64,000 nucleotides of DNA from an uncultured delta proteobacterium (GTDB lineage: Bacteria > Myxococcota > Myxococcia > Myxococcales > Myxococcaceae): positions 544,001-608,000 of the forward strand of contig CAVYSY010000032.1 of assembly GCA_963771175.1 (NCBI GenBank). The letters run 5' to 3'. This document shows, in pieces, positions 32,357-42,767 of this stretch. Made by a program: the position numbers and the translations under genes. Below the pieces are notes generated by a model. That model did no database searches. It was given only the letters and a program-made list of their open reading frames with translations, and had not been told where the DNA came from. How positions within the stretch are numbered: position 1 is the first letter of the stretch; every line of letters begins with the position of its first letter.

Positions 32357-32402
32357 CAGGTGGTAGGAGTCAGCGAATCCCCCAGGAGTACCCCCTGAAG
32401 TA

Positions 32403-32448
32403 GCGGCCGGGGATACGGGACGGCACCGTATCCCCGGTCGTTCTTTTT
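32403..32448 (+). terminator. Rho-independent terminator
   Basis: CCGGGGATACGG/CCGTATCCCCGG 12-bp stem followed by TCGTTCTTTTT. Confidence 0.85.
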
Positions 32449-34497: not shown

Positions 34498-35439
34498 CTA
34501 CCCGCCGGGCCAATGCAACGGGGAGGCCCCCCCACCCAGGGTGAGCACCATCACCCTCCGGGTGCCAGCGAGCTCCACCTCGCGAAAACCCCGGGAGCGG
34601 AAGAGTTGGAACAGACGCGTGTCCCGGGTGGGAAGCTCCACCCACAGCTCCGACAGTCCCCGGGAGCTCGCCTCTTCGGCCAGGGCGCGCAGGAGGGACG
34701 CGCCCACGCCCAACCGGCGCGCCACGGGGGCGACCACCACCCAGCGAACCCGGGCCCTGCCCCCACTCCGTCCCGCCTCGCGCTCGGGAGCCTCGGCGTA
34801 CCCGAATCCCCAGGAGCGGCCCCTCTCGTCGAATGCCCCCACCGCCAGCCCCGCCCTCTCAGCGAGCATCGAGCCCAGCTCCGCCGCGGCATGAGGCAGG
34901 TGATGCCCCATGAAGACGAGCAGGGCCTCCTCTTCCCCGGGCCGGAGCGGGCGCACCGTCAGCGCGCCGAGCCACCGGGCCCGCCCGGACCGCGACCACG
35001 AAGACGTGGCCCACTCGCGCACTTGCTGCCGGGCGCCACGAAGCGCGGGACTCTGGAAGGTGGCGCTCCCCAGGCGCTGGGCGGCATGGAGGAGCGGGCG
35101 CGCGAGCACGGGGACCGGAAGCACCAGTCCCCGGGTGCGGACGCGGACGACCCGACCCAGCAGCTCGGCGGATGGGTCCTCGCGCCCCAGAAACGAGGCG
35201 GTGCGCAGCGGGGACGTGCTCGTGACGAGGTGCGCGGTCAGCCCTCCCCCGGCGCGGGCCAGCATGGCGATGTCTCCGGGCGCCACGGCCTCCGCTCCAC
35301 ACCGGAGCACCTGGACGGCATCGCCACTGCGCAACAGGGGCCACATGCTCCGGCCCAGCCCGCGCACCCAGAGGCGCGTGCCCGGGGGGCTCGCCGCGAG
35401 AAAGGCCGCCAGCTCAGCCGTGGGAGGACGGGAGGCCAT
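34498..35439 (-). CDS. S24/S26 peptidase-GNAT acetyltransferase fusion
   Basis: WVRGLGRSMWPLLRSGD and PGDI...TAH at the N-terminus; VVAPVARRLGVG (acetyl-CoA motif A) and LFRSRGF at the C-terminus. Confidence 0.75.
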   Translation of the reverse strand: MASRPPTAELAAFLAASPPGTRLWVRGLGRSMWPLLRSGDAVQVLRCGAEAVAPGDIAMLARAGGGLTAHLVTSTSPLRTASFLGREDPSAELLGRVVRVRTRGLVLPVPVLARPLLHAAQRLGSATFQSPALRGARQQVREWATSSWSRSGRARWLGALTVRPLRPGEEEALLVFMGHHLPHAAAELGSMLAERAGLAVGAFDERGRSWGFGYAEAPEREAGRSGGRARVRWVVVAPVARRLGVGASLLRALAEEASSRGLSELWVELPTRDTRLFQLFRSRGFREVELAGTRRVMVLTLGGGASPLHWPGG

Positions 35440-36187
35440 GCACCCACGCATCGAGGAAACCCGCCACGGCCGGGTCCTTGCGGAACGTCAGGCGAAAACC
35501 GGGAACGGGCGCCATCAGTGCACCCAGCCGCGACAGCGTGCCGGCCCCAAGGCTCAGCCCCTCGGCATCTCCTCCCTGGAACACCTGCCCGAGCAGCGGC
35601 GCCACCAGGGCGGACGGGCGCACCGGGGTCAGCGACTCGGCCTGTCCCTTCTCCAGGAGCAGGAAGGCCCGCGACCGTGCCTCGGCGCGCGTGGCGGACA
35701 GGTCCGGATCCGAGCGAAACGGACTGCCGCACACGAGGCCGCCCGGCAGCAGCGCCACCACCTCGTCCGAGAGCAGCGCGGCCCGTCCCGACTGGACGCA
35801 CAACCGCGAGAGGGTGGACTTGCCGGCGCCACTGGGGCCCAGGGCCACCACCGCCTCTTCGCCAAAAGCCACGCCCGCGGCATGCAGGCAGAGACCTCCC
35901 TGCCGGAGGATGGCGAGCTGGAAGAGCGCACGCAGCGCGAGCTCCGCCGGGAGGAGTGACAGGGGCGCATCCGTCACCAGCCCGTCCTCCTCCACCCGGA
36001 CGGAACCGAGCGCCGGCTGCTCCGGCTGGAAGGGCCGGGCCCCCGCGCCCAGGTCGGACAGCCGCCTCAGCCGCAGCCTCGGTGGCTCTTCCGTCAGGAA
36101 GGGCTCGTAGCCACACCGAGGGAGGGCCGCGTCGAGGAGGGCCTCCTCGACCTCACATGCCCAACGGCCGAAGCGCAGCCGAGCCAT
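35414..36187 (-). CDS. HPr-kinase-related P-loop protein
   Basis: LHAAGV, GPSGAGKSTL, LLSDEVVAL, GSPF. Confidence 0.8.
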   Translation of the reverse strand: MARLRFGRWACEVEEALLDAALPRCGYEPFLTEEPPRLRLRRLSDLGAGARPFQPEQPALGSVRVEEDGLVTDAPLSLLPAELALRALFQLAILRQGGLCLHAAGVAFGEEAVVALGPSGAGKSTLSRLCVQSGRAALLSDEVVALLPGGLVCGSPFRSDPDLSATRAEARSRAFLLLEKGQAESLTPVRPSALVAPLLGQVFQGGDAEGLSLGAGTLSRLGALMAPVPGFRLTFRKDPAVAGFLDAWVHGLPSSHG

Positions 36188-36196
36188 CCCGCGGAC

Positions 36197-36337
36197 CTAC
36201 TGGCACTCGGGACGTGGATCGTAGAAGGGATCGCAGTTCGTCGGCGCGAACAGGTCCGGCACGAGGATGCGCTCGGACCGCACCCGCGGAGGACGGTAGG
36301 GCTTCTTGGGAGCTGGCTGCTGCGTTTCCGAGCGCAT
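36197..36337 (-). CDS. Putative RiPP-type precursor peptide MRSETQQPAPKKPYRPPRVRSERILVPDLFAPTNCDPFYDPRPECQ
   Basis: Read by hand; fills the gap between flanking genes (11 nt and 9 nt spacing), AGGA upstream, KKPYxPPxV leader motif. Confidence 0.8.
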   Translation of the reverse strand: MRSETQQPAPKKPYRPPRVRSERILVPDLFAPTNCDPFYDPRPECQ

Positions 36338-39300: not shown

Positions 39301-42212
39301 CGGGCACCACCCGGTCCAACCGGAAGGAGGTGAGCGCCACGGCGTTGACCGGATCCAATGGATTGGGCGGCACGGCGGCCACGGTCCGGTTCACGTTGCC
39401 CGCATCGTCCGTGAGGAAGACCACCAGCGAGTAGTCCGCCTCCTCGCTGGGTGGGAGCGCGGAGAGCGTCACCTCGGTGAGGTCTCCCGTGGACGTCGCC
39501 TGGCCGTAGAGGGTGTTCTTCGCCGCGTCGCGGACGTGGACCGGCCGGCCCGGGACCAGCCCGGTGGTGGACACGCGCAAGGACCGGGGCACCCGAGGGC
39601 CACTCCGTGGCATTCACCCTACGGTCCCCGTTGACGTCGCCCTTGAACTCGAGCGCGGTGACCTCCGGACGCCTGCCGTCCACCAGCAGCGACACGGGCG
39701 CGGACTCGTCGAGGTGGCCGCCATCGTCGAGCACCACCTTCAGCGAGTACTTCCCGTCCGGGTAGGAGAACAGGGCGGTGGAGTCCGGTACGCCGGAGGC
39801 CAGGGTGAACCAGCCGCTCCCGTCACGGCACGGAGTCGCCGCCGGAGTGAGCGCGATGCTGGTGCACACGTCCACCGTAGCCGACGGGGAGGCACCGTTG
39901 AGGCTGTAGGCCAGGGGATGCTGAATGCCGGGCGTGGTCGGGTCGCGATCCGACCCCAGGTTGTAGGTGGTGGAGGCGCCCGGTGAGGTGAGGGTGATGG
40001 CACCCGGCGAGGTGTCCACGGTGTACAGCGCGCTCGCGCAGGCCCCGGCACCGGCCCCGTTCACCAGCACCGCGCGCAGCACGTTCACGCCATCGGCGAG
40101 CTGCACGCCCGAGAAGGTCTTCCCGGTGTCGGCGTCCGTCACGGCGGAACTCGCCACCTGGGCGGTGTCGCGGAAGAGCTTCAGCTCACCCACGGCACCG
40201 GCGGAGAAGGCCAGCGTCATCGGCACGAGGAGGTTGCCATCCAGCGCCGTACCGTCGGCCGGCCCCAGCGTCCGGGAGGCATCCGGCGAGGCGAACGTCA
40301 GGGAAGAGACCGCGAAGGCCGAGCTGACGGGCACCTCCACCGAGGCCTCGTTGCCCGCGAGGTCCACCGCCCTCGCGGAGAACGAGCAGGAGCCGCTGGC
40401 GGGAACGGTGACGTCTCGCAGCGTGGCCCGGCCCAGGGCCTCCGCGCTCGCCGTGAGGGTGGCGGGCAGCCCGCAGCCCTGGACGAGCACCTGCGCGAAG
40501 GGCTCCGTCACCGCCTCGAGCACCACCTGGGTGCCGGGCAGCGGGGAGGTGTCGACGAAGGAGGGCTCGATGCGACCCTCGGGCGCGTCGCGCACGGTGA
40601 CGGCGAGCGTGGGAGGCGAGGTGTCACGGGACACAGTGACGGCCTGGCTGACAGCGCCCCCGGCACACGAGGCCACCAGCTTCCAGGCGCCGTCCCCCGA
40701 CAGGTTGAGCGAGACAGAGGCCGCGCCGCCCGAGGCCGTCCCCGGCACGTTCTCCGTGGCGCCAGGCCCCTGCGCGGAGAGGAGCACGGGCCCGTTGTTG
40801 TTGAGCGCCTCCACCCTCACCACCACCGGATTGCCACCGGCAGGCAACACCGAGCCCGGAGCGGGCTCGACGATGCGGCAGTCCGGACGGCCCGTCTGCA
40901 CCTGCGTCGTGGCGAGCCTGCACACCTGGGAGCCGGCCACGTTGCGCACGCAGGCCTTCACCGAGTTGGACCCCTCGGCGAGCGACAGGGGGAAGCGCGC
41001 CACCCGACCCACCCCACTCTCCTCCACCGTGCGCGCGCGTTGGGGCTGGCCGAGCCGGCCCGTCACCGTCGTCCACAGCTCCACCTCCGTGCCCACCGGC
41101 TGGTCGTCCAGCTTCACCACCGCCTCGGCCACTGCGGGCTGGCCCGCGGTGGAGGTGGTGACCTTGTCCGGCACCACCAGGACGGGCGCGGGCAGGGCAC
41201 TCGCCACCACCACCGCGAGGGGCTTCTCGGTGACGTTGCCACCGGAGTCCGTGATGCTGAGCAGGAAATCGTGACTGCCGTCCCCGGGGACGGTGACCTC
41301 CGAGAAGGTGGCCAGCCCCGCGCGCACCGTGGTCGTCAGGGCCGTGGCCCCCGAGCGCGACAGCGTCGCCGTGGCCCCGTCCTCGGCCGAGCGCACCACC
41401 GCCTCCACTTTGAAGGTGGGCGTGGTCACCGCGGACACGGGCGAGGCGAGGGCCAACCGAGGCCCCTCGGTGTCGAACGTCAGGCCGCGCGCCGGAGAGG
41501 TCACATCCCCTCCGGACCGCTTCACCACCGCCACGCACTGGGAGAGCTGGGCCTCGCGCACCGGCTCGGAGAGCGTCACCCGGGCGCTGGCCTTGCCATC
41601 ATCTCCCACCGTGAAGGGCACCGGCGCGATGCCGCACACGCCCGCGCACGAAATGAGGCCACTGGCCCGGCGCAGCCCCGTGGCCCGCAGCTCGAAGGCC
41701 ACCTGGTAGCCTGGCTGCAGTGGCTCCGCGTCATCCGCCTCGCGCAGCACCTGGCCCTCGACGGGGCTGACGATCTCCAGGCCCGGGGGCTCCACGCCCA
41801 CCGTCACGCTCTGGTTGTTCGTGGCCGTGCGCTTCGAGCCCTGCTCCTCCACCGACACCCGCAGCACGTTGGTGCGTCCCGGCAGCGTCACCCCGGGGAA
41901 GCGCACCCGCTGGCCCTCGAGCACCGCGGCCGGTCCCGCGCGCCAGTCCGACTCGCCCGCGAGCTGCACCTCCAGCTTCGCCGTGGACAGCGTCACCGCG
42001 CGCCCAGCCGAGTCCGCCGCCACCGCCACTACGTCGTATTGGAAGCCCTCGGCCGCCGGGTCCGCGTCATCCCCCAGGGCCAGCCGCTGGCCGTCCACCG
42101 GCTGTTCGAACGCCACCGTCAGCGAGGACTCCACCGGCGGCGTGCCACACGTACACCCCGCCATCCACAGCGCACACACCGCCAGAAGCCACTGCCATCG
42201 TGCTCGATGCAT
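36349..42212 (-). CDS. Giant surface lipoprotein (~1950 aa): Ig-like repeats, FN3 and seven FG-GAP repeats (frameshifts near 39580 and 38272)
   Basis: Signal LAVCALWMAGC; D(AS)AGN Big-type repeats; WTPSGDDG..G...YDLR FN3-like; GDLNGDG..ELV-type repeats; three ORFs join in series. Confidence 0.8.
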
Positions 42213-42280: not shown

Positions 42281-42568
42281 TCACGACCCGAGCACCAGCA
42301 CCTTCTTGTCCACCAGGAGCCTCACGAAGGTGACCGTGTCCTCACGGCACACCGCGGGCTCCACCTCGAACTCCTCGCACAGCGCGGCCACGATGTCGCT
42401 CAAGGTGCGCCGCCCGTCGACCAACTCGAGGATGCGCTCGGCCACCTCGGACACCTCGCCGCCCTCGTCCTCGAACGTGTGCAGGGTGTCGTCGGGGCCC
42501 ACCGCCAGCATCCGGTCTCCCACTCGCTGCACGCCCACGTCCGGGTGGAAGCGCGGCACCGCATCCAT
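42281..42568 (-). CDS. PqqD family protein (RiPP recognition element)
   Basis: AERILELVDGRRTLSDIVAALCEEFEV....CREDTVTFVRLL; GAGGGG RBS. Confidence 0.9.
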   Translation of the reverse strand: MDAVPRFHPDVGVQRVGDRMLAVGPDDTLHTFEDEGGEVSEVAERILELVDGRRTLSDIVAALCEEFEVEPAVCREDTVTFVRLLVDKKVLVLGS

Positions 42569-42767
42569 CCCCTCACCCATGTGCGTCTGTCCCACAGGCC
42601 CTCCTGGCCCGCCAGTCCTGTGCGAAGTGGGTGCGATGCTACCCGGTCCCCATCCCCCAGGCCAGGAACGTGGCCTGCTCGCCAGCCCTGTTGTCGACTA
42701 GTCGAGACCCGCTATGACGGAGACACGTGCCACCCTTCGGGTGGCCGGAGGGAACCTGGAAGAATCC

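Follow-up and report, generated by a model that had tools for sequence, protein, structure and literature searches.

A likely myxobacterial variant of the LPP-type RRE/kinase/S26B pathway in a cassette with a giant integrin-like lipoprotein

Results

A five-gene cassette containing a short peptide gene

The window, by which we mean the whole 64,000-nucleotide stretch analysed here, comes from an uncultured member of the Myxococcaceae and carries on its minus strand a five-gene cassette encoding, in this order, an RRE, a giant lipoprotein with Ig-like repeats and an integrin-type propeller, a 46-residue peptide, an HprK-like kinase and an S26B peptidase joined to a GNAT domain (Table 1). The ATG of the peptide gene sits 11 nt past the lipoprotein stop, and the peptide stop lies 9 nt ahead of the kinase ATG. 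AGGA is found 8-11 nt 5' of the peptide ATG, a weak match to a Shine-Dalgarno sequence, and neither a promoter-like site nor a terminator was found 3' of the peptide gene. Elsewhere in the window, the convergent genes for a DUF4382 lipoprotein and an MBL nuclease have between them a hairpin of 17 pairs with a T run (32402-32442), a likely terminator.

Table 1 Features of the cassette and of the peptide in the window
Feature	Coordinates	Strand	Basis
Stand-alone PqqD-type RRE	42281..42595	minus	PF05402 E 1.6e-13; profile vs LppB E 1.5e-10
Giant lipoprotein, ~1,950 aa	36349..42212	minus	Lipobox G-C-T-C, Ig-like repeats, FN3-like segment, C-terminal FG-GAP integrin-alpha-like propeller
Precursor peptide gene, 46 aa (MRSETQQPAPKKPYRPPRVRSERILVPDLFAPTNCDPFYDPRPECQ)	36197..36337	minus	ATG at 36337, TAG end at 36197
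RRE-binding motif K11-K-P-Y14-R-P-P17-R-V19 (YxxPxV)	36281..36307	minus	Leader alignment; LppA Y-16/P-13/V-11
L29-F30-A31-P32-T33, candidate cleavage region and predicted phospho-acceptor Thr33	36239..36253	minus	Inferred from alignment
C35-C45 segment, predicted disulfide loop, type-specific part of core	36203..36235	minus	Cys parity and core types
HprK-like kinase, LppK homologue, 257 aa, P-loop	35414..36187	minus	H102, GPSGAGKST, LLSDE, SPFRS
S26B (Sec11/SipW-type) peptidase with fused GNAT acetyltransferase domain, LppS homologue	34498..35451	minus	Profile, PDB

The original prediction, which was made from the letters of this DNA alone, had given the 46-residue sequence exactly but no strand, which is minus. 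It had called the ORF unannotated; this holds for the ORF track that was used, but the exact protein is present in a public protein collection. Relatives of the peptide are labelled "hypothetical protein" by NCBI, no NCBIfam family matches the window peptide or any of 43 aligned members, and its ESM Atlas matches are unnamed clusters only (0.90-0.91). A search for related loci returned no match.

Compared with an intact relative of 1,925 aa, the lipoprotein gene carries two frameshifts (near 39580 and 38240). Because etfB and the acyl-CoA dehydrogenase gene in the window are likewise frameshifted relative to an intact relative (~44915, ~45950 and ~45570), the assembly appears indel-prone and the lipoprotein frameshifts are probably assembly errors. 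A pseudogene reading of the lipoprotein was rejected on this ground.

The peptide gene is conserved

An ORF this short and GC-rich, with a weak Shine-Dalgarno match, might be a chance ORF, or else a read-through tail of the lipoprotein, with which the peptide is in frame in several same-genus loci. Three sets of observations bear on this. Firstly, all 14 same-genus loci of the cassette have, in the same place, an intact ORF for a peptide with this leader, so that the loss or interruption in relatives which the original prediction had named as evidence against a gene was not seen. Secondly, a leader HMM built from 54 relatives, the window peptide excluded, scored the latter at 48.4 bits versus 5.1 for the next-best ORF within 18 kb. 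Genome-wide, it ranked first among 140,079 ORF tails (E 2.1e-12), a paralogous peptide that was in the seed came second, and the background did not exceed 19.8 bits. Thirdly, over the 21-codon leader block of 31 loci, variability was 0.45 at third codon positions as against 0.30 and 0.20 at the others, and the synonymous share of changed codons was 41% in the peptide frame versus 4-29% in the other five frames. Comparison of the window with the two loci closest to it gave a dN/dS of 0.35-0.45 (0.20-0.31 for residues 11-46). The excess of synonymous changes and the low dN/dS point to purifying selection on the peptide in its own frame, which, together with conservation over at least six families, argues against a chance ORF. 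Nor is the peptide a read-through tail, since it is in frame with the lipoprotein in just 17 of 51 loci, i.e. at the chance rate, and is out of frame in the window. We therefore find either version scarcely credible, and conservation and selection mark the 46-codon ORF as a real, conserved gene.

Kinase, peptidase and RRE are related to those of LPP maturation

The LPP (linear polyphosphorylated peptide) pathway, encoded by lppA-K-B-S-D-N in Paenibacillus alginolyticus, was described by Popov et al. in 2026 (PMC13381572). According to that account, the RRE LppB binds YxxP, LppK adds one to four phosphates to core Ser3, and LppS, a Sec11/SipW-type enzyme with the residues S29/H68/D93, cuts only with the RRE and does so better after phosphorylation (PMC13381572). 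LPP is presented there as limited to Bacillota, and the account leaves end product and role undescribed; its main text is silent on myxobacteria, and its dataset holds 4 Myxococcota peptidases outside the studied cluster, to which no precursor is assigned (PMC13381572).

We compared the cassette directly with LppK, LppS and LppB using the LPP locus of P. alginolyticus (L208). Over 173 aa, the window kinase and LppK share 31% identity (E 6e-11), with LH, GxSGAGKST, LLSDE and SPFRS in common; the kinase family profile hits LppK at E 1.8e-26, and a tblastn search of the genome with LppK gave two matches only, which are the kinases of its two cassettes. In the PDB, the kinase profile matches the P-loop only (HprK, E 0.025), and the kinase assignment thus rests on LppK. 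The predicted model of the kinase has a pLDDT of 93. The peptidase matches LppS both in pairwise comparison (E 2e-9) and as a family profile (E 7.9e-21), its best PDB matches being SEC11C/A (E 1e-8). Its residues S31/H70/D88, invariant or nearly so in 52 sequences, are the counterparts of LppS S29/H68/D93 (PMC13381572). For the RRE, the single pair with LppB is weak (E 0.019) and the family profile gives E 1.5e-10. Each of the three profiles thus hits its own Lpp counterpart. As kinase, peptidase and RRE are homologous to LppK, LppS and LppB, the precursor reading of the peptide holds, and the myxobacterial cassette very likely follows the maturation logic of LPP.

NCBIfam models for HprK-related kinases A/B and SynChlorMet ScmC/ScmD share with the cassette weak matches (TIGR04352 E 3.7e-6, TIGR04355 E 1e-4, TIGR04249 E 0.018) and a PqqD-type RRE, but the scores lie far under the curated cut-offs (TIGR04352: 26 vs 200 bits) and the radical SAM partner is absent. 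Separately, the NCBI name of two related kinases (L031, L032), "potassium transporter TrkH", clashes with their sequence, and a third PqqD-family gene is found in the same genome at C24:27078-27278.

A conserved leader and a candidate cleavage region

Alignment of relatives shows a conserved leader followed by a variable core, as had been expected. Y14 and P17 are invariant in the 43 aligned members, and with the PqqD-type RRE gene at the head of the cassette this agrees with the RRE-type leader first proposed. The proposal had also likened KKPYRPPRV to a lasso leader pattern. The [Y/W]xxPx[L/V/I] motif and the RRE are indeed present, but the cassette contains neither a lasso cyclase nor a B2 protease. 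Phosphorylated lasso peptides of the paeninodin type share with it the [Y/W]xxP leader, a stand-alone RRE and an HprK-like kinase (PMC13381572). A lasso precursor was rejected, since macrolactam cyclase and B2 cysteine protease are both missing from the cassette; it is the S26B peptidase that is predicted to remove the leader.

Where would this peptidase cut? LppS is reported to cut LppA after T-1, 16 residues from the Tyr (PMC13381572). In the paralogous peptide clade described below, all 17 members have Ala/Thr at Tyr+15 and Ser/Thr at Tyr+18, the spacing of LppA T-1 and S3 in that account. In the window clade, Leu occupies Tyr+15 (L29) in 41 of 59 and Pro/Ala Tyr+13 in 46, with Ser/Thr at Tyr+18 in 21 and at Tyr+19, the place of T33 in the window, in 34. 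After YxxP, conservation is highest around the predicted cut.

Three registers were compared in 31 leaders of the window subtype, which end in LF or LY. A cut at L29|F30 keeps the Tyr-to-cut spacing of LppA, as published, and of the genome's paralogue, with a small residue at -3 and no Pro at +1, but puts Leu at -1; we tentatively name it as first candidate. A cut at F30|A31, with Ser/Thr at +3 in 23 of the 31 leaders but Phe at -1, is possible and ranks second. What counts against both is the -1 residue, as Leu or Phe there would be unusual for a signal-peptidase fold.

The third register, A31|P32, is that of the original prediction, in which an S26-type protease cuts after L-F-A to release PTNCDPFYDPRPECQ, with Thr33 and Tyr39 as phospho-acceptors. 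There is indeed an S26-type protease in the operon, with its Ser, His and Asp kept, and of the 31 leaders, 27 have a small residue at -1 in this register and all have Leu at -3, comparable to F-3/T-1 of LppA (PMC13381572). The cut site itself is weak: Pro stands at +1 in 16 of 31 leaders, the window included, Ala31 is replaced by Met or Gln in near kin, and the cut would fall two residues past the Tyr-to-cut spacing reported for LppA. Pro at P1' hinders signal peptidase I (PMC10269814); a search of the review PMC9360617 for Pro at +1 found nothing relevant. A cut at A31|P32 is thus unlikely, and, as Tyr39 varies too (see below), the version with both acceptors is very improbable. Set against it, L29|F30 or F30|A31 with Thr33 as acceptor would be the better fit, and we favour these; a cut elsewhere, or none, seems distinctly improbable. 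As an observation apart, the leaders of four related peptides (L041, L045, L068 and L102) end in lipobox-like ALGC, LAAC, LLGC and FAAC, their hydrophobic stretch being too short for a signal peptide.

The core: acceptor, cysteines and variability

Ser or Thr is present at the position of Thr33 or one before it in 43 of 53 distinct cores, which keeps Thr33 a plausible phospho-acceptor, as had been suggested. LppK is reported not to have accepted Thr in place of Ser3 of LppA (PMC13381572). The acceptor in the window would be a Thr one position farther from the Tyr, with Pro32 at the position of LppA S3 as published, and on this account the myxobacterial kinase must differ. The cysteines are even in number in 49 of 56 Cys-bearing cores and vary in spacing, which fits disulfides, and a C35-C45 loop is accordingly predicted here as in the original prediction. 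Two further claims of the latter fail. Tyr39 was rejected as an acceptor as it is poorly conserved, being Gly in the two nearest genomes, with any Tyr in just 10 of 53 distinct cores; and the internal DP-FY-DP repeat varies in the nearest genomes, with DQIFDP in two of four 90%-cluster relatives. Overall, what was first proposed is partly supported: the general idea of a precursor survives, the cut site is open to doubt, and the claims about the Tyr and the repeat do not hold.

Four peptides of a distant family (L095, L106, L107 and L039) have cores with 0-1 Cys and a basic Arg/Pro-rich tail, e.g. FKRPPPKH. An unrelated protein of 751 aa (P0020), filed in the 90% cluster of a 48-aa Myxococcus peptide, is a clustering artefact.

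Make-up and distribution of the cassette

In the family, 83 of 95 genomes contain a match to the kinase profile, and in the order 134 of 251. We examined 90 kinase loci, of which 77 have an RRE, 74 of these with a peptide; among the 13 without an RRE in the examined DNA, a peptide is found in 2, both on short contigs. The peptides form two clades, with 59 in the arrangement of the window (including five low-scoring ones picked by eye, L048, L066, L068, L101 and L110) and 17 in a paralogous arrangement in the order S26, RRE, small lipoprotein, PQQ-type propeller protein, peptide, kinase. The genome studied here has both: on contig C46 (140043-145254), beside hisS and miaA, lies a paralogous cassette with a propeller protein of 1,020 aa and a 60-aa peptide (144261-144443) with exactly the published LppA spacing (ALA, then QVS). 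At a Myxococcus-type paralogous locus (L128:7000-10600), which belongs to this other clade, RNA from one raw-read run and two contig sets had low depth on both strands and no peak at the peptide gene.

A large secreted propeller protein is encoded directly upstream of the peptide in both clades, though the families are unrelated (FG-GAP vs PQQ-like). The best PDB matches of the window propeller are integrin alpha chains (E 3e-32). A predicted complex of the propeller with peptide residues 17-46 scored 0.02 (mark 0.32), a value that counts neither for nor against an interaction.

An S26 gene is absent nearby, within the examined DNA, in 5 of 59 window-clade and 4 of 17 paralogue loci, the GNAT domain occurs in 24 of 59 window-clade loci, and the peptidase subclade of the window has lost both the KGD motif and the Arg that follows the catalytic His. 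The five window-clade loci concerned (L037, L042, L066, L068 and L069) have RRE, lipoprotein and peptide, the kinase being displaced by at least 1.6 kb in four. Kinase-peptidase fusions (L039:6357-7361 and L079:10966-12606) and a duplicated peptidase (L055:11792-13546) also occur. Seven kinases (L070, L071, L073, L074, L076, L077 and L080) are orphans beside the same MBL nuclease gene: neither an RRE nor a peptide nor a peptidase was seen in 11-16 kb or, for five of them, in another ~9 kb upstream.

The neighbourhood survey covered 761 neighbour genes of 76 loci in 137 clusters, and 78 proteins (representatives of 69 of 84 selected clusters plus 9 cassette genes) were scanned with Pfam. The window cassette contains no MsbA-like exporter, and no ABC_membrane match was found among the 78 scanned proteins. 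No nucleotidyltransferase is encoded between RRE and EamA in the window, and a single NTP_transf_5 was found among the 78 proteins (L103). Two NTP_transf_5 (PF14907) genes of the same genome lie in a polysaccharide-type locus on a separate contig (C57:30717-34007). Radical SAM genes were seen in a minority of distant loci in the Pfam scan, and none in the window cassette; the versions with such a SPASM-type gene are L040, L041, L048, L097, L103, L106 and L110, L103 having NTP_transf_5 as well. EamA adjoins the cassette in 42 of 76 loci, but it was rejected as a type-specific exporter as its identity is 83% within and 84% between the types described below.

Core, lipoprotein and kinase share allelic types

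Typing was carried out on 27 loci with five core types; 4 single-member core types and distant loci were excluded. Core, lipoprotein and kinase vary together in five allelic types, which extend across genera. Propeller identity is 77% for the same genus and type, 44% for the same genus but another type and 58% for another genus but the same type, values to be read with the core types having been set from core sequences after the identities were known and with kin being non-independent. Kinase identity within a genus is 85% within and 45% between types. Thus, for propeller and kinase alike, the same type in another genus (58-59%) is closer than another type in the same genus. The corresponding values are 95, 95 and 87% for EtfA and 88, 85 and 72% for the RRE; within and between types, they are 92 and 91% for the MBL nuclease and 87 and 79% for a flanking surface lipoprotein. 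A single branch of the propeller tree sets each core type apart from all the others, and monophyly of the genera is rejected (AU p 1.6e-56). As the kinase tree splits one core type and the peptidase tree two, it is the propeller that tracks the core most closely. The window itself has a type-1 core, propeller and kinase but a type-4-like peptidase (74-81% vs 57-60%). In the paralogous cassette, little core variation is seen among Myxococcus/Corallococcus-type loci.

The whole ectodomain, and not the propeller alone, changes with type, the block extending from lipoprotein residue ~150 to the kinase, and physical linkage alone could therefore give shared types. That the propeller falls to 44% between types in one genus, where EtfA stays at 95%, nevertheless suggests type-specific surface recognition, and it is to such recognition that the shared types point as a prediction. 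A specificity module would be expected to look like this, with RRE and leader conserved while kinase and surface protein go with the core.

Discussion

The cassette likely represents a variant, myxobacterial and so far undescribed, of the LPP-type RRE/kinase/S26B pathway. It has in common with LPP, as published, a discrete RRE, a kinase of the HprK-like kind, a Ser-His-Asp peptidase of the Sec11/SipW type, the lack of a cyclase, and a YxxPxV precursor with Ser/Thr 18-19 residues after the Tyr. Of the published motif YxxPxVLxHQxIxFETxxS, however, the window peptide has YxxPxV but not LxHQxIxFET, and its acceptor is a Thr one position later. The leader ends in ILVPDLF as opposed to QxIxFET, and the core is short with two Cys and a Thr, as opposed to a Gly/Asn-rich 45-mer with a Ser. 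The host is a member of the Myxococcota, a giant lipoprotein gene lies within the operon, and GNAT is fused to the peptidase. The core LPP cluster, in the published account, includes an MsbA-like exporter (LppD) and an NTP transferase (LppN), neither of which is in the window cassette, and with these two defining features missing we file the cassette as a variant of LPP and not as a member.

Our preferred reading, to which we assign a probability of about 0.6, is that the peptide is an LPP-like precursor with an RRE-bound leader, phosphorylated at Thr33 and cut by the S26B peptidase, whose disulfide core works with the giant lipoprotein. The RRE would bind the YxxPxV leader, and the HprK-like kinase would phosphorylate Thr33, possibly with more than one phosphate if LPP is a guide. 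The S26B protease would then remove the leader near L29/F30 to leave a core of 16-17 residues; the order, kinase first and then RRE-assisted cleavage, is taken from LPP. The core would close its predicted Cys35-Cys45 disulfide and would likely work with the neighbouring lipoprotein, as a ligand matched to type or as a small subunit, in either case at the cell surface. N-acetylation by GNAT, the export route and the partnership with the lipoprotein are the weakest parts of this explanation, and a cassette without an exporter to bring a cytoplasmic peptide to a surface protein speaks against the last.

It is the partnership that the strongest rival disputes. Maturation would be the same, but the phosphopeptide would act alone, as an intracellular regulator or free metabolite, and the lipoprotein gene would be a passenger in a swapped block. 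The lack of an exporter within the cassette fits this, as does the change of lipoprotein and kinase as one block, and LPP clusters of Bacillota are described as functioning without such a protein (PMC13381572). We nonetheless consider it unlikely: a propeller protein of one or other unrelated family is encoded directly upstream of the peptide in both clades, the paired cysteines point to an oxidising compartment, and the propeller tracks the core better than the kinase does. The other rival is a phospho-switch, in which leader removal is optional and the RRE-bound, full-length phosphopeptide controls synthesis, folding or export of the lipoprotein. Loci without an S26 gene in the examined DNA, the degenerate region around the His in the window subclade and the discordance of the peptidase tree with the core types would all accommodate it. 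But the catalytic triad is kept in the 52 aligned peptidases, the residues at the predicted cut are well conserved, and a missing S26 neighbour may lie elsewhere in those genomes, all of which makes the switch very unlikely.

The preferred reading, in which core and lipoprotein work together, has two known analogies, and they are analogies only. In the qhp operon (quinohemoprotein amine dehydrogenase), a small leader-bearing Cys peptide is modified and trimmed, and becomes attached to large periplasmic proteins encoded adjacently (PMC7876137); the radical SAM enzyme, subtilisin, ABC exporter, heme subunit and Trp cofactor of that operon (PMC7876137) are missing here, and homology is not expected. 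The locus of the polymorphic kin-recognition receptor TraA likewise encodes a surface protein whose allelic types diverge across Myxococcales (PMC6372800). As described, TraA binds homotypically and has no peptide-maturation genes (PMC6372800); a social role for the cassette would be hypothetical.

In the open-access literature and listings searched, no paper on the myxobacterial cassette was found. An exporter- and nucleotidyltransferase-free version tied to an integrin-like lipoprotein is a handle on the purpose of such phosphopeptides, and since the paralogous cassette has a peptide named from Myxococcus xanthus, the system is testable in a genetically tractable model. A bolder extension, which we hold to be rather unlikely, is a myxobacterial identity system in which a type-specific, phosphorylated and disulfide-closed peptide is made by each strain and bound or displayed by its own giant integrin-like lipoprotein, with peptide, receptor and kinase swapped from lineage to lineage as matched sets. 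If this were true, the cassette would be a second allele-typed recognition locus beside TraA, and its peptide a RiPP acting as a ligand at the surface with no exporter of its own.
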